A stretch of 10,109 nucleotides of DNA, taken from IMG/VR virus record IMGVR_UViG_2648501392_000020. One strand, 5' to 3'. The notes beneath the pieces are model-generated. The model was not told the DNA's origin, did not search any database, and was given only the letters and a program-made list of their open reading frames with translations. A program made the translations under genes and the position numbers. Source of the DNA: a virus (taxonomy: Duplodnaviria; Heunggongvirae; Uroviricota; Caudoviricetes). Every line of letters begins with the position of its first letter. Within the stretch, counting starts at the first letter, position 1. This document shows, piece after piece, positions 1-10,109 of the stretch.

Positions 1-564
1 TCAACGACTGCGCTTAGCGTGGCGCTCCCAGTTTTCTTGCTTCGCCTGCGCCGTTTTACGTAGTGCGACGTAACACGCCCCGCTGCCGCCATGATGCGGT
101 AGCGCGGTGCAATATGCCTGAACATCATCAAATTCGGTCAGCCAGCGCGCCACATAGCTGCGGACAATATTGGCATGCGATTTATCTTCCCGCCCTTTAC
201 CATGAATAATCAGCACATTACGCAAACCATCCGCCAGGGCTTGTTGAATGAAACTGAACACCATTTTGCGGCACTCTTCCACCGGCTGGCGCAAAAGATT
301 CAGGCTCGCCTGTTGCGGATATTTACCACTGCGCAGCTTATCCAGCACCCCATGTTGCAACCCTTCCCGCCGAAACTCCAGCGGCTGACTTAGTGGGATG
401 ATGTCGAGAAATCCGGTGGTGAGGAAATTATCAAGCTGCAGCGTGTCGATACGCTGCGGCGCACGTTGGTTACGCGTTGGATGCCAGTGGACATCGGTAG
501 CACGTTTCAGCGGCTGGACATCTTCCATGGCGTCAAGAAACAGCGATTTGTCGTCAAGGTTCAT
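1..564 (-). CDS. smrA: Smr-domain protein (SmrA/YdaL-like DNA endonuclease), complete, stop at 1-3
   Basis: 187-aa ORF with ATG at 564 and GGAGG 7 nt upstream. C-terminal Smr motif (LIIHGKGREDKSHANIVRSYVARWL). N-terminus MNLDDKSLFLDAMEDVQPLKR matches my recollection of E. coli SmrA, not verified. Confidence 0.75.
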   Translation of the reverse strand: MNLDDKSLFLDAMEDVQPLKRATDVHWHPTRNQRAPQRIDTLQLDNFLTTGFLDIIPLSQPLEFRREGLQHGVLDKLRSGKYPQQASLNLLRQPVEECRKMVFSFIQQALADGLRNVLIIHGKGREDKSHANIVRSYVARWLTEFDDVQAYCTALPHHGGSGACYVALRKTAQAKQENWERHAKRSR

Positions 565-1338: not shown

Positions 1339-1620
1339 TTAACGTCGTAACCGTTCCGGCTTCTTCCAGTGGTAAGTAATTTTTTCTTTCTCTTGGTACA
1401 TCTGCACGCGGCGACGGTACGACAACATCTCCAGAACTCTGGTGCGTATGTTGCGCATATCCACGCCGTTAAGCTCGATACCGTCACGGCGCATCACCTC
1501 AGCAACAACACGCACATAATTTTCAGCGGTCACGCTGTCCGGCTGCGTGGCCTGTTCGTCAGCCTGCTGGCTGATTCCGGTAACGCGGCGGATTAATCGC
1601 AGTATTTCGGCTTCTGTCAT
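1339..1620 (-). CDS. Hypothetical protein, 93 aa, last gene of the packaging cluster
   Basis: ATG at 1620 with a GGGGG Shine-Dalgarno about 5 nt upstream. Protein-like composition. No family recognised. Confidence 0.55.
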   Translation of the reverse strand: MTEAEILRLIRRVTGISQQADEQATQPDSVTAENYVRVVAEVMRRDGIELNGVDMRNIRTRVLEMLSYRRRVQMYQEKEKITYHWKKPERLRR

Positions 1621-1693
1621 TGTGCCCCCATCGCTCTGATAGCCTGGTGTCGTCAGGTCCTTCCTGGAATTATGGCCCGTTACGGGGCGGCGG

Positions 1694-2236
1694 TTACTCG
1701 CCTTTGTTCTGTAGCAACTTCTCAGGCGCGCTTCCGGTAGTTTCCATCAGGTAATCAGCCAGTATCTGTGGCAGGTTTTCGTCAAGTCTTGCACATGCGT
1801 TACATGCTTTGGCTATTTCCCTTTTTAGTTCATCCAGCATATACGGCCTTATATCGGGAAAGCGCCTTTGCATTGTGAGCGGGAGGCTGTCCATGATTGA
1901 TGAAATCTGACTCGCTAGTTTTGAGATCGCGTAGATGCAAAACTTTGTATCAATCACCTCGCCGCGTTCGCGCTCGTTTTTAAGTTCCTGCGCTTCCGCC
2001 TGGGCCGTCATTAATCTGATTCTTACGCGTAAAAGTTCATCATCATCAATCTCGCCTTTGTCGTTTGTAAGCTGGTTAATTGCATTGTTAACCCTATTGT
2101 CTATCACGCTAGCAACATCATAAAACGCCTCACGGCCTTTACGCTCAACGGGAGTTACTCCCCACTTGTCGAACGCTGTCGCACTTACGCGGCAGCTTTG
2201 CGCCATAGTTTTTTTGTTCATCAGGTGCGATTTCAT
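1694..2236 (-). CDS. Terminase small subunit, lambda Nu1-like
   Basis: Translation aligns with lambda Nu1 as I remember it (ours RLMTAQAEAQELKNERERGEVIDTKFCIYAISKLASQISSIMDSLPLTMQRRFPDI vs lambda RLTRAQADAQELKNARDSAEVVETAFCTFVLSRIAGEIASILDGLPLSVQRRFPEL). Start at ATG 2236 has a GTGGGG Shine-Dalgarno; alternative ATG at 2221 gives MNKKT, matching lambda MEVNKK. The cos site lies immediately upstream. Confidence 0.85.
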   Translation of the reverse strand: MKSHLMNKKTMAQSCRVSATAFDKWGVTPVERKGREAFYDVASVIDNRVNNAINQLTNDKGEIDDDELLRVRIRLMTAQAEAQELKNERERGEVIDTKFCIYAISKLASQISSIMDSLPLTMQRRFPDIRPYMLDELKREIAKACNACARLDENLPQILADYLMETTGSAPEKLLQNKGE

Positions 2237-2263
2237 CAATATCCCCACTTAGTTAAGGTTTCA

Positions 2264-2338
2264 GGTTGGTGTGTTGGTGTTATCTTTCCCTTTTTATTCA
2301 TAGAGATAGAGCGAAAAACAAAACCACCACCACCAACC
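2264..2338. repeat. cosB-like region: inverted GGTTGGTG / CACCAACC repeat blocks flanking an AT-rich spacer; candidate TerS-binding elements
   Basis: ggttggtgtgttggtg at 2264-2279 and accaccaccaccaacc at 2323-2338 on the plus strand, between cosN and the terS start. Differs from the lambda sequence at the equivalent position. Confidence 0.45.
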
Positions 2339-2369
2339 CGAAAAGGCTCATAAATAGCGAAAATCCGCA

Positions 2370-2381
2370 AGGTCGCCGCCC
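2370..2381 (-). other. cosN: lambda-type cohesive-end site (GGGCGGCGACCT on the minus strand) within cos region 2250-2437
   Basis: Minus strand reads GATCCGGCAGGCTACG-GGGCGGCGACCT-TGCGGATTTTCGCTATTTATGAGCCTTTT, near-identical to the lambda right end/left end junction as I remember it. Position upstream of the Nu1-like gene mirrors lambda cosN-cosB-Nu1. Confidence 0.85.
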
Positions 2382-2437
2382 CGTAGCCTGCCGGATCGCC
2401 GGAAAGGACCCGCCAGCCAGAACGGGCCCTAATTTCA

Positions 2438-2832: not shown

Positions 2833-3174
2833 TTACACACGAGCCAGCGGCTGAACAGAAATACCTGAGCCAACAAACGCGGCAACCTTTGCCGACAGTT
2901 CTCTTACAGACTCAGGCCAGTTCAGAGCATCAACATTTAAAACACCTGTCTTATAAACCTGTGCCTGTGTTTTTTTCGCTGTGTCGATTTGTACAGCGGA
3001 AACATAAACCGCTTTGCCTGCGCTCGTTCCATCCCATACCACTAGCGCACCAGTGGCATCTTCCTGCATCAGTGGCGTAAACGCAGGTATTACCCCTTTA
3101 TTGGCTGAAAATATCCCCAGCGTAGTAACCAGTGCTTCAGTGCCAGACATGAGTTCAGTGTAATGAGTAGCCAT
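2833..3174 (-). CDS. Head decoration protein, lambda gpD-like
   Basis: 113 aa. TPLMQEDATGALVVWDGTSAGKAVYVSAVQ...YKTGVLNVDALNWPE...AAFVGSGISV aligns with lambda gpD ([30 protein letters not shown]...YKSGTFRYEDVLWPE...TAFAGTAISIV). GGGGGAG Shine-Dalgarno, 9 nt after the capsid gene stop. Confidence 0.85.
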   Translation of the reverse strand: MATHYTELMSGTEALVTTLGIFSANKGVIPAFTPLMQEDATGALVVWDGTSAGKAVYVSAVQIDTAKKTQAQVYKTGVLNVDALNWPESVRELSAKVAAFVGSGISVQPLARV

Positions 3175-3183
3175 TGCTCCCCC

Positions 3184-4230
3184 TTAGCCAATGCGAACGG
3201 TAACAAAACGATTGATGCGGGCCGGTATTGGCTGTGGTGCTGAATGTGTCTGCACATATTCAATAGCCGGATCACCAGGCACAATATAGTTTTTCGGTGC
3301 AAGTTCGGCTTTAGTCAGCCCCATCCGAATTAGCTCCGGATCCTGAATACCGCCATAAGCGACAATCCCCTGAAGAGCCGTATTGCCAAGCACCATCAAA
3401 TCAGGATCAAGGAAATATTTTTCAGTTCCGTCCTCGTCGGTATAACGCCCGCTGTAAACAACAATCGCAACATCGCCCATATACCCTTTAAAACTCACCG
3501 AATCACCAAGGTCTTTAAGGGCCGTTTCCAGTTCGGAATTAGAACCTCGACGGGTATCCAGAGCCTCTTTTACAGCTCTGAATGAGCGGTATTTTTTCCA
3601 TACATTGCCGCCCATAATAATGATATTAGTGACTCCCTCACTAAATTCTGCGTAGCTCTCAATATCATCATTTGGGTCAAAAGATCCTTTATCCTTACCT
3701 GACCACTCAGCACCGCCAGACTGAGTGATGATATTTTGTGGTTTAATATTCCAGTCCAGCTCATAACGTTCAATACCATCGCCCACAATGATATTTTTCC
3801 CTGTTGTAATTGCCTGAACGGCAAGCCATTCAATACGTGCACGTATAGCTTTAGCCTGATTTACAATCGCCTGTTTAACTTTAATATTACGCGCCCCAAA
3901 AGCATTGTATTGCTCAGGTGATACACCAGCAGGGCGCACAGCTAGCTTATTTGGATCAATGCTGCTTTTCGGTTTCATATAGCCAGGGCGAATTGTTTTT
4001 GATTCGTATCCCTCATCTCGTGAAACTTTACTGCCCACCATAGGAGAGCAAAACGCCGCGATCGGGATATTTGGATCGTCGATCGTATCAAGAATAATGT
4101 CTCTCGATTCAAACATTACCGAGCGAGTGAAAAACAAACTGGTAAACAACGCATTTAATTTTTTTTGCACATCTTCAGCATTAGCCACCTGCACAAGCTG
4201 TGTAGGCGAATATAAATCAACCATACTCAT
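3184..4230 (-). CDS. Major capsid protein, lambda gpE family
   Basis: Long blocks align with lambda gpE (ITQSGGAEWSGKDK...DPNDDIESYA, RSFRAVKEALDTRRGSNSELETALKDLG, GDVAIVVYSG, MVLGNT). Start chosen at ATG 4230 (MSMVDLY, as lambda MSMYTT) with AAGAGG Shine-Dalgarno. The ORF track start at 4311 is an upstream extension. Confidence 0.9.
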   Translation of the reverse strand: MSMVDLYSPTQLVQVANAEDVQKKLNALFTSLFFTRSVMFESRDIILDTIDDPNIPIAAFCSPMVGSKVSRDEGYESKTIRPGYMKPKSSIDPNKLAVRPAGVSPEQYNAFGARNIKVKQAIVNQAKAIRARIEWLAVQAITTGKNIIVGDGIERYELDWNIKPQNIITQSGGAEWSGKDKGSFDPNDDIESYAEFSEGVTNIIIMGGNVWKKYRSFRAVKEALDTRRGSNSELETALKDLGDSVSFKGYMGDVAIVVYSGRYTDEDGTEKYFLDPDLMVLGNTALQGIVAYGGIQDPELIRMGLTKAELAPKNYIVPGDPAIEYVQTHSAPQPIPARINRFVTVRIG

Positions 4231-4440: not shown

Positions 4441-4863
4441 TTAAAACGGTATATTATCGCCGTACGGTTCATCATTCCCTGACTGTTGTTTTGCCCTGTT
4501 CAATGCGTCAGTGGCCTGGCCCTGTTGACCTTTTTTGCCGCCCGGTCGCGCCGTTCTGGCACTGATTACACTATCTGCGATAACCTGCCAGCCCTGCCGC
4601 GTTTCGCCGTTCTGGCCTGTCCACTGGCTCACCTGCATGTTACCCGCCACGCTCAGGAGTTCGCCTTTGTGGTGTTTTGCCAGTGCGTCGGCCTGTCTGC
4701 CAAACGCCAGGACAGATAACCACATCGTCGCCGTTCCGTCATCTGCCTGGCTGCACGGCAGGGGAACCGCCATACTCGCCATCGCCATTTGTGTCCCTTT
4801 GCTAGTGGTCTTTAACTGCGGGTCAGCCACCAGCCGCCCGTAAGCCGCTATCTGTGCTGTCAT
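4441..4863 (-). CDS. ssb: Single-stranded DNA-binding protein (SSB)
   Basis: 140 aa. OB-fold SSB pattern (GRLVADPQL...W..V.AFGRQA...KG..L.V.G......W....G..R) and C-terminal acidic tip ending DNIPF (canonical DDDIPF). GGAGAGGTGG Shine-Dalgarno. Confidence 0.85.
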   Translation of the reverse strand: MTAQIAAYGRLVADPQLKTTSKGTQMAMASMAVPLPCSQADDGTATMWLSVLAFGRQADALAKHHKGELLSVAGNMQVSQWTGQNGETRQGWQVIADSVISARTARPGGKKGQQGQATDALNRAKQQSGNDEPYGDNIPF

Positions 4864-5111
4864 GATTCCACCTCTCCGGTTTTAACGTTGATTGTTGTTA
4901 CCTGTTCCGCTTCGGCAATCTCCCGCTCTGTCAGCGTGGCAAAATTTGCCGCCGTCGTGGTCATGAATGCGCTTATCAGTTCGGGATGTGCTTTCGCGTA
5001 TCCTTCTCCGGCGTGGCGGTCTATCGTTCTGATTGCCACCTTTAAGGCGTGCTCTGTCATGTCTAATGCGCGATATTTTGGTGCTGTCTTATCTCTGGTT
5101 TTTCTGGTCAT
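4860..5111 (-). CDS. Hypothetical protein (about 83 aa); start uncertain
   Basis: ORF track frame 4860-5243 begins with GTG inside the iteron array and has no Shine-Dalgarno. Internal ATG at 5111 has AGGTGG upstream and leaves the iterons intergenic. Stop overlaps the ssb start (ATGA). Confidence 0.45.
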   Translation of the reverse strand: MTRKTRDKTAPKYRALDMTEHALKVAIRTIDRHAGEGYAKAHPELISAFMTTTAANFATLTEREIAEAEQVTTINVKTGEVES

Positions 5112-5113
5112 GC

Positions 5114-5325
5114 GCCCACCTGTGCCCACTTTTTCTACCCACTTTTCATGGTTTCCCACTTCGTCCCACCTGGGATTTTGTGGTTTTATATCGTACTGTT
5201 TCATAAGAATTTTTTTAGTGCCCACTTTTTGGGATGTATACACGTGGGAAAGTGGGCGATTTTGTTAAATTCCAGTTAAATTACCCACTATTCCCACTTT
5301 TAACGCCCACTTTTTACAGTGGGTG
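5114..5325. repeat. Iteron cluster (CCCACT(TTT), at least 9 direct and 3 inverted copies); probable island replication origin
   Basis: cccac(t/c) at 5115, 5125, 5138, 5155, 5165, 5221, 5284, 5293 and 5306; inverted agtggg/gtggga at 5244, 5251 and 5318. Lies immediately 3' of the helicase-initiator gene. Confidence 0.7.
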
Positions 5326-6720
5326 AACATCATCCCCATCGACGCAAATCACGCCGTCTTTTTCCAGTTTGGCTAACCATCGTTTAAGGTGTTTTGTGTC
5401 ATATCCCAGCTTTTTCATGTCATCACGTAGCAGCGGGATCGTGCATTTATCACCATGCTGTATACGTGACCGGATACAACCCCATAAAGCCGTGTGATTT
5501 TCCGTCTTGTTCCCGGCCTCCTCTATGCGCTCCAGTTCAGCAGGGGCGCGGGGAACGTCAATCACCACCATGGACACGATTTCTTCACCCTCAGGATCCG
5601 TAAATACCTCCACGCTCTTAAGGTCGTAGGCGCTTTCTTTTGGCTCCTCCGCGTCCTTCATCTTCTTACATGCTGCAACCAGCGCCGTAGCCTCTGAATG
5701 TTCCCGACTGATTCGGAACTCAGCATCAAGCGCCGCACGGAATGCACTGGAACCCCGCGCCCCTTTCGTCTCATCCTTGCCGGAATGATGCACAACCAGA
5801 ACCGTGGCCCCCGTGGCCTGCTTTATCGCGTCACACCCCTGGATAAACGCCCCCATGTCGCGGGAGTCATTTTCATCATGACCACCAAAGCAACGGGCCA
5901 GCGTGTCAATGACAATCATCCGCACCCTTTCGCCCGTTCTGTCCTGCACTAATCCGGCGGTCCTGATAACCTGCTCCACATAGTCAGGCGATGCAGGGAA
6001 GACAGGCGCGTTAACGATGCACAAATCCGTAACCACCTTGTCGTGGGTTATCTCCCACGCCTTAACGCGGCGTTTTACGCCCATACTGCCTTCGCCAGCG
6101 ATATAGATAACCGCGCCCTTACTTACCCTGCGGCCTCCCCATGCCATACCTGTGGCAACATGACACGACCAGGAAATAGCCAGGAACGATTTATAAGAAC
6201 CGCTGGCCCCGTAGGTGCTGCATAATGATTCAGCCGGAATAAGCCCCTTAATTACGTAGCTTTGCTGCGCGTCGAATCCCTCAGAACCCCATGAGATGGG
6301 AAGTGTGATTTTTCGCTTTCCGCCATTCATGACCAGACTTTCCCCGCGTTCCCAGGTTTCTTTAAGTCGGGGTAGTTGCTCGCTCCAGTCCTCCAGTAGT
6401 TCGAAATTCTCTGAAAGTAACCGCGCTTCCCGGACACCTGCGATCGCCAGTTTGGTGGCAATGGTCAGCATCTGCATATCGTCCAGGTTTCCGGCGCGTA
6501 TGACCTTTGCTCTGTATCGTCCTTCATCAACAATCTGTAAATTGTCCAGTTCGCTTAACTGATAACGGCCCAGGTAAACCGGAGGGATGGGATCGCCTGC
6601 TTTTTTGGCCTGTGCAATCATGTAATGTTCTGCAAAGGAGTGAGCATTATCACCCGCAAAAATAACCGCCTCAGTGTGTTTATCTTTCGGTAACAGTTTT
6701 ACGTTCGGTGCCAGTTTCAT
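5314..6720 (-). CDS. RecA-fold replicative helicase / replication initiator (RepA/DnaB-like, AAA_25-type) with C-terminal winged-helix-like domain
   Basis: 468 aa. Walker A GASGSYKS, Walker B-like MIVIDTL, HHSGKD motif. C-terminal basic helical segment (LLRDDMKKLGYDTKHLKRWLAKLEKDG) adjacent to the iterons. AGGGG Shine-Dalgarno. Confidence 0.85.
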   Translation of the reverse strand: MKLAPNVKLLPKDKHTEAVIFAGDNAHSFAEHYMIAQAKKAGDPIPPVYLGRYQLSELDNLQIVDEGRYRAKVIRAGNLDDMQMLTIATKLAIAGVREARLLSENFELLEDWSEQLPRLKETWERGESLVMNGGKRKITLPISWGSEGFDAQQSYVIKGLIPAESLCSTYGASGSYKSFLAISWSCHVATGMAWGGRRVSKGAVIYIAGEGSMGVKRRVKAWEITHDKVVTDLCIVNAPVFPASPDYVEQVIRTAGLVQDRTGERVRMIVIDTLARCFGGHDENDSRDMGAFIQGCDAIKQATGATVLVVHHSGKDETKGARGSSAFRAALDAEFRISREHSEATALVAACKKMKDAEEPKESAYDLKSVEVFTDPEGEEIVSMVVIDVPRAPAELERIEEAGNKTENHTALWGCIRSRIQHGDKCTIPLLRDDMKKLGYDTKHLKRWLAKLEKDGVICVDGDDVHPL

Positions 6721-7016
6721 TTTTTACCCCTGAATCCGTTAATCATGGTTTTCAGCTTCTGGATGTTTGCCCGTGCCCTGGCGTTGCTGGTGGACACGTT
6801 ATGCGGCGCGGTCTGTACCAGAGAAAAATCACGCCGGAACTGATAAACAGGCATCACGCAATCATATTCGTAACCTTCACGGCGGTAGGTTACGCGCCGT
6901 TCTTCCACGCCCTTAATCATTACCGTGCCGCCGTACTGGTCGCGGTAAATATCGCCGCGCGTAAATTTAGGGTGAGTGTTGCCACTGGCAGTTAAGCCAG
7001 AATATTTAAGTTTCAT
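6717..7016 (-). CDS. Hypothetical protein, 99 aa
   Basis: ATG at 7016. Stop overlaps the helicase start by 4 nt (translational coupling). No family recognised. Confidence 0.55.
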   Translation of the reverse strand: MKLKYSGLTASGNTHPKFTRGDIYRDQYGGTVMIKGVEERRVTYRREGYEYDCVMPVYQFRRDFSLVQTAPHNVSTSNARARANIQKLKTMINGFRGKK

Positions 7017-7021
7017 TATTT

Positions 7022-7255
7022 TTATTCTCCGGTGTGCTGTTCTTTATATCTGTCGTGCAATAGATCTATTTCTTGCAGTTCCATTATTACAGGCTCAAGA
7101 AGCGTTATTAATGCTGTGGCAATTCTTGATTTTTGTTTGTCGCGTTCATTGTCGCCAAGTGTTTCAAGCCATATGCGTAATATTTCCATCATGCTTTCAC
7201 TGTGAGAAAGTGCAAGAAATGCGCGGTCTATTGTTTCGAGGTAAATATCACGCAT
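7022..7255 (-). CDS. Hypothetical protein, 77 aa
   Basis: ATG at 7255 preceded by GGTGGGG. The ORF track start at 7267 is GTG. 5-nt gap to the next gene. Confidence 0.5.
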   Translation of the reverse strand: MRDIYLETIDRAFLALSHSESMMEILRIWLETLGDNERDKQKSRIATALITLLEPVIMELQEIDLLHDRYKEQHTGE

Positions 7256-7256
7256 A

Positions 7257-7478
7257 TTAATCCCCACCCGTTGTTTTTCTTAAAACAGTTTCCGTTACGA
7301 AATCAGCATAGTTAGCGGCGATATCAAGAATATTTAGCCCTGTATCCCTATGCTCATCAGTGCAAAGAAAGAAAAAAGCCACCCGCATAATTTCAGATAT
7401 TGACGAAAGCGCATCAGCTGCATTATCAGGAACGCCGGAAAATTCCTGTTTCAGGGAATTAAAACGATCATCACGCAT
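7257..7478 (-). CDS. Hypothetical protein, 73 aa
   Basis: ATG at 7478 with AGGGGGG Shine-Dalgarno. Stop sits 1 nt before the next start. Confidence 0.55.
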   Translation of the reverse strand: MRDDRFNSLKQEFSGVPDNAADALSSISEIMRVAFFFLCTDEHRDTGLNILDIAANYADFVTETVLRKTTGGD

Positions 7479-7836
7479 GTTTACCCCCCTGAATGACCTG
7501 ATAACCGCAACTGGTCAGCAACTCGATAAATTCCGGCAGTGTGCCGAAACAGCAATCATCACGCAGCCGTTCGCAGGATACCTCGACGCCGTTTTCGTAG
7601 TGACTCACCATACATCCGGTAAAATGCAGATCATCATCGTGATGGCTCGTTGACGGCTTAATCAGTCGCGCACGTTCCGCCAGTTCCAGCAATGCTTCAA
7701 CGCTTCCGGCAATTGCACCATCCGGCAGGTGATAATTACGCACTATGCGCCCGTTCTCCACATTGACCAGCAACTGCCCGGTAAATTTCTCGTCAAACTG
7801 AATGCTGTTAAGGTCAGAAATTGACAGGTTATGCAT
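7471..7836 (-). CDS. Hypothetical protein, 121 aa
   Basis: ATG at 7836 with perfect AGGAGG 6 nt upstream. The ORF track start at 7854 lacks a Shine-Dalgarno. 8-nt overlap with the downstream gene. Confidence 0.6.
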   Translation of the reverse strand: MHNLSISDLNSIQFDEKFTGQLLVNVENGRIVRNYHLPDGAIAGSVEALLELAERARLIKPSTSHHDDDLHFTGCMVSHYENGVEVSCERLRDDCCFGTLPEFIELLTSCGYQVIQGGKHA

Positions 7837-8053
7837 GGTGCACCTCCTGCACATCAGCCATGATAATTTTTCCGGCCTTATCCAGTGCCTGATCGGCTTT
7901 TAGCTGCACAAATGCTAAATAATGGAAGATGCATTCTGATTCTCTGGCTGCGTGTTTATGCGCCCTGTCAGCAATAACAGAAATATCAATAAGCGCGTGC
8001 ATCAGCGTAGTGAGCGCGGCGGCTGCTGCGTCCGGTGTGGTTTTATTGCACAT
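7829..8053 (-). CDS. Hypothetical protein, 74 aa
   Basis: ATG at 8053 with GGGGGTAGG upstream. Overlaps neighbours at both ends as part of the coupled operon. Confidence 0.5.
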   Translation of the reverse strand: MCNKTTPDAAAAALTTLMHALIDISVIADRAHKHAARESECIFHYLAFVQLKADQALDKAGKIIMADVQEVHHA

Positions 8054-8249
8054 GGCCTACCCCCTGGCGAATACGGGCAGCGAATACCATCACGCAGCCA
8101 TCAGGAGATTGCTGACGCGCTTCCTGTTCGCTGGTGGCCTCAATGGTAATCACGCGCGGTTGTGCCGTGCTCAGGGCGATAAAACGCCAGATGTATTTAT
8201 TCAGGTTGTACGAGTCCCGCCCTTGCGGGTGTGTGGTATGATTTAACAT
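8043..8249 (-). CDS. Hypothetical protein, 68 aa; first gene of the leftward operon (shares frame with the tail of the 471-codon ORF)
   Basis: Internal ATG at 8249 with GAGGT Shine-Dalgarno 5 nt upstream, about 100 nt downstream of a TTGACA-N17-TAAAGT promoter-like element. Confidence 0.4.
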   Translation of the reverse strand: MLNHTTHPQGRDSYNLNKYIWRFIALSTAQPRVITIEATSEQEARQQSPDGCVMVFAARIRQGVGHVQ

Positions 8250-8347
8250 AGCTACCTCGATACTTTCGCTATCGTTGGTGGTTAGAAGCCCCGTTACTGC
8301 TCCTACAGTGCGGGGTTTCGTCGTTTCTGCACCTTGCATTAACAAGG

Positions 8348-8424
8348 TGTAAGTAACTTTATTTATAGGTGGCTTACATGTCAATGCTTTTATGTAAGAC
8401 TTTTTATGTGTATATTGTCTTACA
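8348..8424. promoter_or_regulatory. Divergent promoter/operator region: leftward promoter (-35 TTGACA 8379-8384, -10 TAAAGT 8356-8361 on minus strand) overlapped by four CTTACA/TGTAAG half-sites
   Basis: Half-sites tgtaag 8348-8353, cttaca 8373-8378, tgtaag 8393-8398, cttaca 8419-8424. Central palindrome CTTACA-N14-TGTAAG covers the -35. A TATATT -10-like hexamer at 8411-8416 faces the plus-strand gene. Confidence 0.5.
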
Positions 8425-8445
8425 CTTTCATTGAGAGGATTACAG

Positions 8446-8751
8446 ATGGCTACAGGTTCAAAAAACGCAAAATCACAATCACTGACAGCTCGGATCCCGC
8501 ATGATGTTATTGAAGGCATGGAATCCGTAAAACTGGACGGTGAAAGCAACGCCGGATTCATCGTAACCGCCATGCGCGGTGAAATCGCCCGCCGCCAGGC
8601 AGAAGGAAGCGGAGAAAACCTCCTGGTTTCTTCGCTCGATGCACTGGCGCAGGTGGAAAAAATCGGAGTCAAAGCAGCCGAGGAGATCGGGCAACTCATC
8701 ACCGTCGCGCGTGAAGAACTCCAGCGTCGCAAGGCCAAAGAGCAGGAGTAA
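8446..8751 (+). CDS. Ribbon-helix-helix-like small DNA-binding protein (candidate island regulator/repressor), 101 aa
   Basis: ATG at 8446 with GAGAGGA Shine-Dalgarno. N-terminal SLTARIPHDVIEGMESVKL...NAGFIVTAMRGEIARRQ fits a strand-helix-helix pattern; the C-terminal half is charged and helical. Composition is clearly more protein-like than the antisense frame. Confidence 0.6.
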   Translation: MATGSKNAKSQSLTARIPHDVIEGMESVKLDGESNAGFIVTAMRGEIARRQAEGSGENLLVSSLDALAQVEKIGVKAAEEIGQLITVAREELQRRKAKEQE

Positions 8752-8808
8752 CCATCACCAGCGCCGTGGTGTGAGTAACTACGGCGCATTGCTATGCAGG
8801 ACAACACA

Positions 8809-8982
8809 ATGACCGATAAAGAATTGACCAAAACATTATCACCGACACGGAAAAGACGGCGCAGAAAGATAGAGCATGAATCAGAAAGATTCGCGCCATG
8901 TGCTTTTGCCCTTGAGCAATTTCTTAAAGAGTACAGGGAAAAGCGCTCATTGCAGGTATGGCAACGAACTGAACCAGACTGA
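8809..8982 (+). CDS. Small basic hypothetical protein (about 57 aa)
   Basis: ATG at 8809 (alternative 8794) with weak AGGA upstream. Lies between the RHH gene and the plus-strand terminator. Lys/Arg/Glu-rich composition. Confidence 0.35.
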   Translation: MTDKELTKTLSPTRKRRRRKIEHESERFAPCAFALEQFLKEYREKRSLQVWQRTEPD

Positions 8983-9061
8983 TTGCATTGCCCACCAGCC
9001 GCAAATGTGGCATTGTTGGCGATGCTCATGCGTTGGGGATAACGTGTAGCTTGTGTCGAGG

Positions 9062-9090
9062 GGCCACCGTAGCGGGTGGCCTTTGTTTTG
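9062..9090 (+). terminator. Intrinsic terminator for the plus-strand RHH operon
   Basis: GGCCACC (9062-9068), loop gtagcg, GGTGGCC (9075-9081), then TTTGTTTTG (9082-9090). Confidence 0.6.
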
Positions 9091-9458
9091 CCTGTTATCC
9101 GGCAATTGTGGCGCTTCGCCACACGGTTGATATAATCCCACTGCTCAGATTCATTTTTTGCGCAGTAGGTTAATTGTTCACAAAGGCGCTCCGGCAACGG
9201 GGCGCTTTTTGTTTTTATTAGTTTGTAGAAACCTGACTCAGAGATAATGCTCATATTCTGATTGCCGTCAGGGGTGTAAGTTAAATTTACTCCCTTTTTA
9301 TCATCAAACATCTGCAACGCTCTGGCGTTAACAATATTGGTTTCACTCCCGCCAGTAAGGCCGGAAATAACCGGAATAATTTCGGCAAAATTTTGCAGAT
9401 TCTGTTTTTCAGGACGAACGAAGCCCCGCCCTTGTTCGGGAGAATATCCAGTATTCAT
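9084..9458 (-). CDS. Bro-N / antirepressor-like ORF, 5' protein-like portion only; the frame stays open to 8043, so the 3' end is undefined
   Basis: ATG at 9458. Segment GNQNMSIISESGFYKLIKTKSAPLPERL resembles the Bro-N core (ISESGLY.LI.RS..P.A). No plus-strand ORF competes in 9180-9458. Downstream, the same frame has Ser/Cys/Arg-rich antisense-like composition. Confidence 0.4.
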
Positions 9459-9510
9459 GGTTAGATCTCTGTATTAGTGGATGGGTGGCGGCTGTGTGCC
9501 GCCAGCCTGA

Positions 9511-9699
9511 TTAGTGAACTGCCTCGCAGCTTTCCTTCCATGCCAGAACTTCGGATAAAGACCAGCCAACGGAACGACCGCCGAGCTTACGCCGTGATGG
9601 GAATTGTCCGGTTTTTTCCAGGCGGTACCGACATGAACGGCTCAGGCCTGTAAGTTGCTGACATTCTTTTTCACGTATAAAGCGATCTGTGCTTAACAC
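9511..9699 (-). CDS. alpA: AlpA-family transcriptional regulator/excisionase-like protein, 62 aa, GTG start
   Basis: HTH block ECQQLTGLSRSCRYRLEKTGQFPSRRKLGGRSVGWSLSEVLAWKE matches the AlpA pattern. GTG at 9699 is preceded by AAAGGGGGA. The upstream ATGs at 9807 and 9867 lack a Shine-Dalgarno and would give an atypically long N-terminus. Confidence 0.65.
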   Translation of the reverse strand: MLSTDRFIREKECQQLTGLSRSCRYRLEKTGQFPSRRKLGGRSVGWSLSEVLAWKESCEAVH

Positions 9700-10109
9700 A
9701 ATTCCCCCTTTGATATTTCTTAAAGAGTTATTTGGTGTCCTATTGTGTTGTGGTGCTTCGGATTGTGTCAGGGTGTTTATGGAATGGCAAACACTGGCGG
9801 CGGTCATTTTACAGAAGTGTGGTAATGAGAATAAAAACTCTTTTAATTCATTGTGGTGCAAAGGCATAAAATTCTGTTTTTACGCCTTTTTTACATGTTT
9901 TTAAGAGTGATTCGCCAATGTACAAAAAGCCAGTAAAACGACTGAAAATCAACTTTTTAGGGTGTCAGTCAGATGTTAATCAAGTTTGTTCCAGATTGTT
10001 CGCCGTTGTTCGTCGTGGTGTCTCGTTGTTTCACGTTGTGTCAGTTCTAAAAAATCGCAAAAAAAATTATATTTCTCTGGCTATTGGCAGTGTGGTTACG
10101 TTTTTGTGA

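Follow-up and report, generated by a model that had tools for sequence, protein, structure and literature searches.

A stretch of 10,109 nt from the virus record IMGVR_UViG_2648501392_000020 (called the window below, by which the whole stretch is meant) carries on its minus strand a cohesive-end site (cos) like that of phage lambda and, directly downstream of it, terS, a gene for a small terminase subunit (TerS). The terS is not joined to a gene for the large terminase subunit (TerL). The element is a phage satellite, a typical Gram-negative phage-inducible chromosomal island (PICI) of the EcCICFT073/IHE3034 family. For the site itself, the reading that we prefer, with a probability of about 0.68, is that positions 2254-2413 (minus strand) are cos1 of a PICI of the TerS type, in which the island TerS would bind its own cosB and recruit the TerL of a helper phage to cosN.

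The cos core and the cosB-equivalent region

Read in order on the minus strand, a cosQ-like heptamer is followed, after 23 bases, by the 12-nt lambda cohesive-end sequence and then directly by the equivalent of lambda bp 13-34 (Table 1). The 12-mer GGGCGGCGACCT has no other match in the window with up to one mismatch (0.03 expected from shuffled sequences) and is the same in lambda/DE3, in cos1 and cos2 of EcCICFT073, and in CFT073 phage 4. The site was compared with lambda, represented by prophage DE3 with its annotated cos, in an alignment anchored on the 12-mer. Identity was 28/32 at bp -32 to -1, 12/12 at bp 1-12 and 20/22 at bp 13-34 (the two differences being C13T and G18A), and dropped beyond I2 to 21/36 at bp 35-70 and 29/75 at bp 71-145. 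The I2-like part, CGCTATTTATGAG, was unchanged across 12 aligned TerS-type islands, taken from E. coli at several attachment (att) sites, Kosakonia and Superficieibacter. In a blastn search of 50,697 phage records, 90 records matched, every one of them lambdoid and the annotated cos of phage DE3 among them. These matches were limited to window 2335-2413 (78-79 bp, 88.5-89.9% identity, E 3e-19 to 2e-21), and none reached into the cosB-equivalent stretch between cosN and the gene. An exact 12-nt cohesive end with conserved flanks and a cosQ about 30 bp upstream of cosN, as in a lambda-type cos, were therefore found, whereas a cosB with R3, R2 and R1 plus the integration host factor (IHF) site I1 was not. 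By analogy with lambda, the minus strand is predicted to be nicked 5' of 2381 and the plus strand between 2370 and 2369.

An earlier note on this DNA, made without database searches, had recognized lambda cosN and the first bases of the lambda left end on the minus strand, and the exact 12-mer followed by 20/22 identical bases bears this out; cosQ, which the note did not mention, is an additional element. The note had also proposed an alignment to lambda and lambdoid cos sites as the check on its reading. With a 79-bp match (E=2e-21), cosQ, cosN and I2 at lambda spacing, and a location homologous to a validated PICI cos, the idea that the resemblance is a short chance identity is already refuted and has practically no probability left. 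Its description of the region between cosN and terS as unlike lambda's was likewise accurate, as identity falls away after I2 and the phage matches stop before this region. The inverted blocks that it saw around an AT-rich spacer were recovered as 13-nt arms (12/13 complementary) on either side of a spacer with 66% A+T, compared with 52% for the whole window.

In the 12 aligned islands, the consensus of block 1 is (G)CTGGTGGTGGTG(T)TTGTTGTT at bp 46-70 and that of block 2 is CAAYACACC[A/C]ACCTG at bp 107-121, with ACACC[A/C]AC present in 12/12; the core sites of the two blocks are GGTGGTGG/CACCAACC. Both blocks are kept in Kosakonia and Superficieibacter despite a TerS that is only 55% identical. 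No lambda R sequences occur in this cosB, and at the R3 coordinates identity to lambda R3 is 8/16. In lambda, the distance from the site at the R3 position to cosN is critical (PMC9026076).

An exact-pattern scan of IMG/VR for the junction of I2 and block 1 yielded 76 loci, 68 of them with enough flank for comparison. Among these 68, the exact 12-mer is present in 59, GGGTCCT stands at the lambda position in 66, and 64 have an intact 180-aa open reading frame (ORF) starting exactly at bp 146, i.e. 145 bp from cosN; no length differences were observed over the 193 bases compared. For 46 distinct E. coli-level sequences, the mean pairwise identity was 0.88 in the portion of cosB not fixed by the search pattern, 0.90 in the spacer and 0.92 (0.915) in block 2, compared with 0.80 (0.795) at terS third codon positions and 0.60 in the flank upstream of cosQ. 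Since cosB exceeds both the third codon positions and the upstream flank, its non-coding DNA appears to be under constraint, an argument of moderate weight because the sample is closely related. No sigma-70-like promoter was found between cos and terS, and terS is therefore probably transcribed by read-through from upstream.

The island TerS and the terminase that it may recruit

The product of terS matched Pfam Phage_Nu1 (PF07471) with an E-value of 8.7e-24 (84 bits against a cut-off of 30; profile positions 35-162) and PHROG_57, terminase small subunit, over its full length (9e-53, residues 1-172), so that the Nu1-like terS reported beside the cos in the earlier note is confirmed. The DNA-binding, oligomerisation and C-terminal segments of the Nu1 family are all present, with the Nu1 C-terminal motif LDE..P..L..Y kept. 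The closest phage TerS is N15 gp1 (48% identity, full length), identity to lambda Nu1 being 37%. None of the 50,697 phage records contains a TerS more than 48% identical to the island TerS, and among 72,556 plasmid records only 3 (171 kb, 187 kb and 4.9 Mb, the last chromosome-sized) contain one more than 49% identical, with no TerL listed under the match in any of the three. The gpA-type TerL that members of the Nu1 family have encoded next door was not found here. In 13 island loci that were read closely (L001, L004-L007, L062-L069), terS is followed by a gene for a 93-aa protein and then by chromosomal or prophage DNA. TerL was never next to terS in these 13 loci, nor in the island loci of the viral database; any TerL that a locus does contain belongs to the interrupted prophage and is about 4-12 kb upstream of the island cos. 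As no island locus has an adjoining TerL, the protein was marked as a satellite TerS.

The island TerS proteins were divided into a DNA-binding part (the first 50 residues) and the part after AQELKN. The DNA-binding domain is the best conserved part among them (66-94% identity from island to island), compared with 39-54% for the part after AQELKN across genera. It is 52-60% identical to that of N15 (56% for the TerS of the window) and 22-34% identical to those of lambda, 21-like phages and PhiR5_1 (lambda 34%). In the Superficieibacter island, the part after AQELKN is 71% identical to lambda and 44% identical to that of the window. These values suggest that the DNA-binding domain travels with cosB, while the remainder of TerS is mosaic. 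The most phage-like portion is the central segment (residues 71-130), with 48-58% identity to lambda, CFT073 phage 4 and PhiR5_1. A single-sequence phmmer search of PDB with the island TerS gave no match to Nu1 or Rpp. With a profile built only from island proteins, the best PDB match was lambda TerS(1-98), chain 6HN7_B, a weak one (E=0.004), and neither the single sequence nor the profile matched RppC.

Relatives of this recognition module were found in phages. N15 R3 (bp 48-60, GAGGTTGTTGTTT) resembles island block 1. In L105 (IMGVR_UViG_3300028982_000003), a TerS-type island is embedded in a prophage of a class with an N15-type TerS domain, a two-block cosB and a phage-4-like TerL (94% identical); the relevant prophage DNA is in the last ~740 bases of L105 (13370-14108, minus strand; 1-740 once reverse-complemented). 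The TerS DNA-binding domains of this prophage and of the island are identical at 27/50 positions (54%). The prophage cos has GGTGGTTGTTGTTT at bp 49-62, ATACAACAACCTTA at bp 108-121 and TATCT at the matching spacer position; its blocks, GGTTGTTG / CAACAACC, lie at the same coordinates as those of the island and differ from them by 1-2 bases per site. This layout and sequence argue for homology between the island cosB and that of a real phage. Island and prophage differ in parallel in the two blocks (GGT/ACC versus GTT/AAC), so that the inverted symmetry is kept, as would follow from contact of a single dimeric reader with both blocks. At least 220 of 5,426 complete E. coli genomes contain lambdoid prophages with an N15-type TerS and an adjoining TerL, and the phage collection represents these prophages at no more than 47% coverage. 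The recognition site and TerS, which the earlier note had called private, are indeed non-lambda and island-specific, but private only in that sense, since the TerS domain is N15-like and the blocks have homologues in the cosB of lambdoid prophages.

It might be argued from these prophages that their own terminase reads the island cos directly, cosB included, and that the island TerS is redundant or mainly interfering. Their number, the same two-block layout and coordinates, the small differences per block and the presence of an embedded TerS-type island in one of them would all agree with such mimicry of the helper, as would the finding that the N15 terminase tolerates lambda's R3 (PMC9026076). 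However, the block differences (GGTGGTGG/CACCAACC versus GGTTGTTG/CAACAACC) go together with DNA-binding domains that share only 54% identity, the island blocks are found unchanged in many islands, and the intact terS in 64/68 loci argues that the gene is needed. We consider this explanation improbable and retain the reading in which the island TerS is the reader of its own cosB.

Islands lying within prophages bear on the TerL that would be used. In E. coli MS1679 (L070, NZ_CP097719 3403000-3427000), the portal gene of a prophage is split by a TerS-type island. The Nu1 of this prophage is 99-100% identical to that of lambda in the two parts compared, and its cos is that of lambda, including cosB. 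Island and prophage have cosQ, cosN and I2 in common and differ in cosB and TerS. Further TerS-type islands embedded in portal genes were found in L065, L066, L069, L095, L105 and L145, in both lambda-type and 21-type prophages; a helper-embedded configuration has been described by Williams and co-workers (PMC10111431). Embedding in prophages of these types makes a lambda-like TerL the probable enzyme.

The host island and its exchangeable cassette

E. coli E110019 and two other strains carry the window in the chromosome at 100% identity. According to the RefSeq annotation of the identical E110019 locus, the element occupies about 11 kb between smrA and abgR. Its genes follow one another in a single direction: integrase, alpA, an Icd-like gene, small ORFs, a RepA-family helicase, a single-stranded DNA-binding protein (SSB), capsid, decoration, an AlpA-like helix-turn-helix (HTH) protein, cos, terS and the 93-aa gene (Table 1). 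No TerL, portal, tail or lysis gene was found in the island (annotation, with tblastn for TerL and portal). The five core components of a PICI in SatelliteFinder are integrase, regulator, primase-replicase, capsid gene and small terminase (PMC10085698). Here int, alpA, pri/rep, a capsid homologue and terS were all found, in one direction and within about 11 kb, the size expected of a PICI being 10-15 kb. The "non-phage island" of the earlier note is, by this gene set and annotation, a Gram-negative PICI and hence a phage satellite. EcCICFT073 itself carries homologues of capsid and decoration genes together with two cos sites (Fillol-Salom et al. 2018, PMC6092414), and the islands of strains IHE3034 and 18098 encode TerS (PMC6092414). 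The 93-aa protein is 85-89% identical in the CFT073, O157 and IHE3034 islands and is common to Rpp-type and TerS-type islands. The 127-aa AlpA-like protein was considered as a candidate Rpp and rejected, as it has no similarity to RppA.

Table 1. Features of the window (positions counted from its first base; bp, distance from the left end of cos)
Feature	Position	Strand	Basis or remark
Chromosomal flank, smrA	1..564	-	RefSeq
93-aa conserved protein, function not assigned	1339..1620	-	PHROG_1561; last island gene, after cos2
cos2 remnant, inverted: AGGTCCT (1655-1661), then TACG + GGGCGGCG (1681-1692)	1655..1692	+	Cut off inside cosN, fused to terS stop codon
terS, 180-aa small terminase of the Nu1/N15-gp1 family	1694..2236	-	Pfam, PHROG; large-subunit gene not adjoining
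13-nt inverted repeat, TTTCGGGTTGGTG / CACCAACCTGAAA	arms 2331-2343, 2259-2271	.	12/13 complementary (92%), 59 nt between arms
Putative cosB block 2, CCAACACACCAACCTGA	2261..2277	-	bp 105-121; inverted relative to block 1, like lambda R2 to R3
A+T-rich spacer between blocks, conserved TCTATCT..ATGAAT motif	2278..2312	-	~66% A+T
Putative cosB block 1, GTTGGTGGTGGTGGTTTTGTTTTTC	2313..2337	-	bp 45-69; position of lambda R3 / N15 R3
Equivalent of lambda bp 13-34 (right part of cosN + I2), TGCGGATTTTCGCTATTTATGA	2348..2369	-	20/22 identical
cosN core, 12-nt lambda cohesive-end sequence, GGGCGGCGACCT	2370..2381	-	Exact match
cosQ-like heptamer GGGTCCT	2405..2411	-	bp -30..-24, same place as lambda cosQ
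AlpA/excisionase-like HTH protein, 127 aa	2438..2821	-	Pfam Phage_AlpA 1.4e-8; PHROG excisionase/regulator 2e-47
gpD-like head decoration gene	2833..3174	-	Pfam HDPD 4.6e-15; RefSeq
gpE-like major capsid gene	3184..4224	-	Pfam Phage_cap_E 1e-40; RefSeq
SSB	4441..4863	-	Pfam; RefSeq
RepA-family helicase	5314..6720	-	Pfam; RefSeq
alpA	9511..9699	-	Pfam; RefSeq
Remainder of PICI backbone	4441..9699	-	Also holds small ORFs and Icd-like gene; integrase just past right end of window

In EcCICFT073 (L003), the corresponding end of the island reads capsid, decoration, a 137-aa gene, cos1, rppA (144 aa), an inverted cos2 and the 93-aa gene. Its cos1 is GGGTCCTTTCCGG...TTACGGGGCGGCGACCTCGCGGGTTTTCGCTATTTATGA, divergent afterwards, and the cos of the window sits in the slot of this cos1. 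The EcCICFT073 cos1 is required for lambda- and phi80-mediated transfer (PMC6092414, PMC6739421), and RppA bound to the helper TerS redirects packaging to the EcCICFT073 cosB (PMC6739421). The island of O157:H7 (L004) shares the icd-phoQ site with EcCICFT073, and over the preceding 2.4 kb the two islands have 94% identity. When the two cassettes were compared (L003 2600-3265 against L004 9046-9838), homology was found to end exactly at the end of TATTTATGA of cos1 and to restart at the cos2 core. Between these breakpoints CFT073 has cosB and rppA, and O157 has a different cosB and a terS 85% identical to that of the window. The IHE3034 island (L005) also has this combination of cos, cosB and terS, with a TerS that is 86% identical. 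The window joins the cassette to another capsid/decoration type, 55% identical to that of CFT073 and 84% identical to that of the Kosakonia/Superficieibacter islands. Its pairing with different capsid/decoration types suggests a cassette that moves on its own, apart from the rest of the island. In these sequence comparisons, cosB+terS behaves as an exchangeable specificity cassette in place of the EcCICFT073 cosB+rpp, and the inverted cos cores may serve as recombination handles.

The cos2 of the window is truncated. Complete copies are present in L003 (at 3309), L004/O157 (at 9883), L005/IHE3034 (at 9909) and L063, and the cosB of cos2 in the related islands resembles that of CFT073 phage 4 (21-like). 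Deletion of cos2 in EcCICFT073 raised lambda-mediated transfer (2018 paper, PMC6092414). At the other side of cos1, the 137-aa protein of EcCICFT073 (L003 2084-2497) matches the C-terminal part of the protease/scaffold gene of phage S49 (tblastn, 37%) and a PHROG head maturation protease (1e-8), and may be a Nu3-like scaffold; in the window its slot is taken by the AlpA/excisionase-like HTH protein.

As the cassette fills the exact rpp slot, the island TerS could be thought to act like Rpp, i.e. to form mixed oligomers with the helper TerS through its central domain and block packaging of the helper, with the helper TerS bringing TerL. The high similarity of residues 71-130 to phage TerS proteins would suit this, and so would the need of Rpp-type islands for the helper TerS (PMC6739421); RppA shares just the DNA-binding-domain part of the TerS PHROG profile. 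Rpp proteins, however, are 139-154 aa long and are without the last 30-40 TerS residues (PMC9026076), whereas the island protein is full length and has the Nu1 C-terminal motif, and so could bind TerL itself. In BLASTP it gave no alignment to RppA. We consider the Rpp-like mode of action unlikely, and the assignment of the protein as an Rpp was rejected because it has 180 aa, a Nu1-like C-terminal segment and no similarity to RppA.

Using window 1694-2346 (cosB and terS without the shared cos core) as the query, the cassette was matched in 732 of the 5,426 complete E. coli genomes (~13%, O157:H7 included), the match covering 80% or more of the query in 722. The rppA cassette matched in 269 genomes, with 80% or more of it covered in 53; the RppB and RppC types may be missing from this count. 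This distribution, together with the intact ORFs, makes it very unlikely that the locus is an inert relic, in which cos and nu1 would be left over from a decaying lambdoid prophage and no longer serve a function. The absence of TerL, portal and tail genes, the truncated downstream cos2 and the failure of two related islands to transfer (see below) are what a relic might display, but the same module, its ORF intact and its spacing unchanged, is found at several att sites and is kept across genera, always in PICI gene order. A scan of GTDB representative genomes gave only two island-type loci, the remainder being prophage Nu1 genes and lambda-like contigs. The latter are short lambda-like Nu1/A contigs in unrelated assemblies, among them Kitasatospora, Paenibacillus, Bradyrhizobium and Oceanobacillus (L015-L024, L030, L032-L035, L040, L042, L043, L046, L056), and are most likely lambda DNA contamination of the assemblies.

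Several points weigh against packaging of the island by its own TerS with a borrowed TerL: i) window 2369 (cos bp 13, beside the predicted bottom-strand nick) is T, as it is in L062, but C in all phages compared (lambda, phage 21-like and N15) and in most other islands, those of the L064 type among them; ii) scanning with WATCAANNNNTTR gave no IHF consensus with up to 2 mismatches in the spacer, although lambda I1 was recovered with 1 mismatch; iii) the C-terminal part of the island TerS is only 42-44% identical to Nu1 of the lambda-type prophage in which such an island is embedded, so that binding to the TerL of that prophage is not evident from the sequence; iv) the AlphaFold model made from 12 sequences is of low confidence (mean pLDDT, i.e. 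predicted local distance difference test, 60), and Foldseek against PDB gave nothing at E<=0.001, the weak top matches being MerR-like regulators; v) no experiment demonstrates packaging of a TerS-type E. coli PICI; and vi) the IHE3034 and 18098 islands were not transferred after mitomycin C induction of resident prophages (PMC6092414), a result that tells no more than that a suitable helper, or suitable conditions, were missing in those strains. An I1 equivalent in the spacer was dropped on account of the empty IHF scan, an intrinsic bend being still possible. A C-terminus matched to the helper was not supported by the 42-44% identity, yet the C-terminal part of the Superficieibacter island TerS is close to that of lambda, as given above. 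The secondary structure of the model (strand, helix, helix, hairpin, helix) would fit a winged helix, but at a mean pLDDT of 60 no structural claim is based on it.

With these points taken into account, the course of events in the reading that we prefer would be as follows. A lambdoid helper would induce the island, and AlpA-dependent excision and RepA-driven replication would produce concatemers. The island TerS would bind blocks 1 and 2 through its N-terminal winged-helix domain, with block 1 at the R3 position, and its phage-TerS-like central and C-terminal parts would recruit the helper TerL. We infer that TerL would then nick cosN at 2370-2381, giving 12-nt cohesive ends identical to those of lambda, and that island DNA would be pumped into heads made by the helper until packaging ends at a downstream cosQ/cosN. 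A shared cut site combined with an own recognition site and an own TerS that redirects the helper TerL is the accepted PICI model (PMC6092414, PMC6739421, PMC10085698). The arrangement proposed in the earlier note, a retained cut site next to an own cosB and an own TerS without TerL, was observed here and fits this model; the redirection of TerL is its probable consequence, as judged from sequence.

A more tentative proposal, which we hold to be somewhat less likely to be right than wrong, is that TerS-type cos PICIs represent a third type of packaging specificity within the lambda-like cos systems. In these islands an N15-like domain would read two inverted GGTGGTGG/CACCAACC sites, the satellite TerS alone would deliver a lambda-type TerL to the shared cosN, and cosB together with the gene for its reader would be swapped between inverted cos cores by recombination with phages or other satellites.

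Cos-type Gram-negative PICIs, a shared cosQ/cosN with a foreign cosB, and PICIs encoding TerS have already been published, and the cos of the window is a common, catalogued arrangement to which incremental comparative detail is added here. Our literature search, of incomplete coverage, found no functional study or description of the cos/cosB of TerS-type Gram-negative PICIs, nor a description of the N15-like affinity of the TerS type or of the cassette boundaries. If the island TerS does divert the helper TerL, a very common class of E. coli satellites, present in O157:H7 and other pathogens, would have a packaging route distinct from Rpp, which would bear on the question of which phages mobilise TerS-type islands and their cargo. 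The paired site differences (GGTGGTGG/CACCAACC versus GGTTGTTG/CAACAACC), together with the diverged DNA-binding domains, offer a small set of natural variants in which the reading of cosB specificity can be studied. For annotation, a lone "terminase small subunit" behind a lambda-like cos is a marker of a satellite, not of a degraded prophage.

Comparison with known packaging systems

Among known systems, EcCICFT073 with cos1 and RppA (Fillol-Salom 2018, 2019; Murialdo and Feiss 2022) is of the same island family and has the same gene order and cosQ/cosN/I2 core; it also has a cosB that is not the helper's and a cassette bounded by a second, inverted cos. It differs in that i) RppA is a 144-aa Rpp, whereas the island here encodes a full-length 180-aa TerS of the Nu1/N15 type, ii) its cosN is separated from the ATG by about 101 bp, with a single proposed R3, ACCACCACC (bp 55-63), compared with 145 bp and two inverted blocks here, and iii) its cos2 is complete, whereas that of the window is truncated. 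The proposed site ACCACCACC is the reverse complement of the island GGTGGTGGT core. Of the TerS-encoding PICIs of IHE3034 and 18098 (PMC6092414), that of IHE3034 has the same cos/cosB/terS cassette. In the window, however, the capsid and decoration genes are of another type (55% identical), the AlpA-like gene replaces that for the 137-aa protein, and the att site is a different one (smrA side).

N15 has the closest TerS, and its R3 is equally far from cosN and contains a related G-K-T triplet repeat, GAGGTTGTTGTTT. In contrast to the island, only one R site is present in N15, its cosN and terS are 88 bp apart, a TerL adjoins, and the cohesive end, GGGCGGCGTCCG, differs from that of lambda at 2/12 bases. 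Lambda shares near-identical cosQ, cosN and I2 with the island and likewise has its TerS gene downstream. The first site at the R3 position, the A+T-rich spacer and the inverted second site of the island recall R3-I1-R2 of lambda, but the island has no R sequence of the CGTTTCC type, no IHF consensus and no third R site, and its TerS shares only 37% identity with Nu1 (34% in the DNA-binding domain). The TerS proteins of Staphylococcus aureus pathogenicity islands (SaPIs) provide a functional parallel, as there, too, the recognition specificity comes from the satellite, while TerL and the capsid are stolen. SaPI TerS, however, serves headful (pac) packaging, and SaPIbov5 uses the helper cos without a TerS, whereas the PICI described here combines a satellite TerS with a cos.

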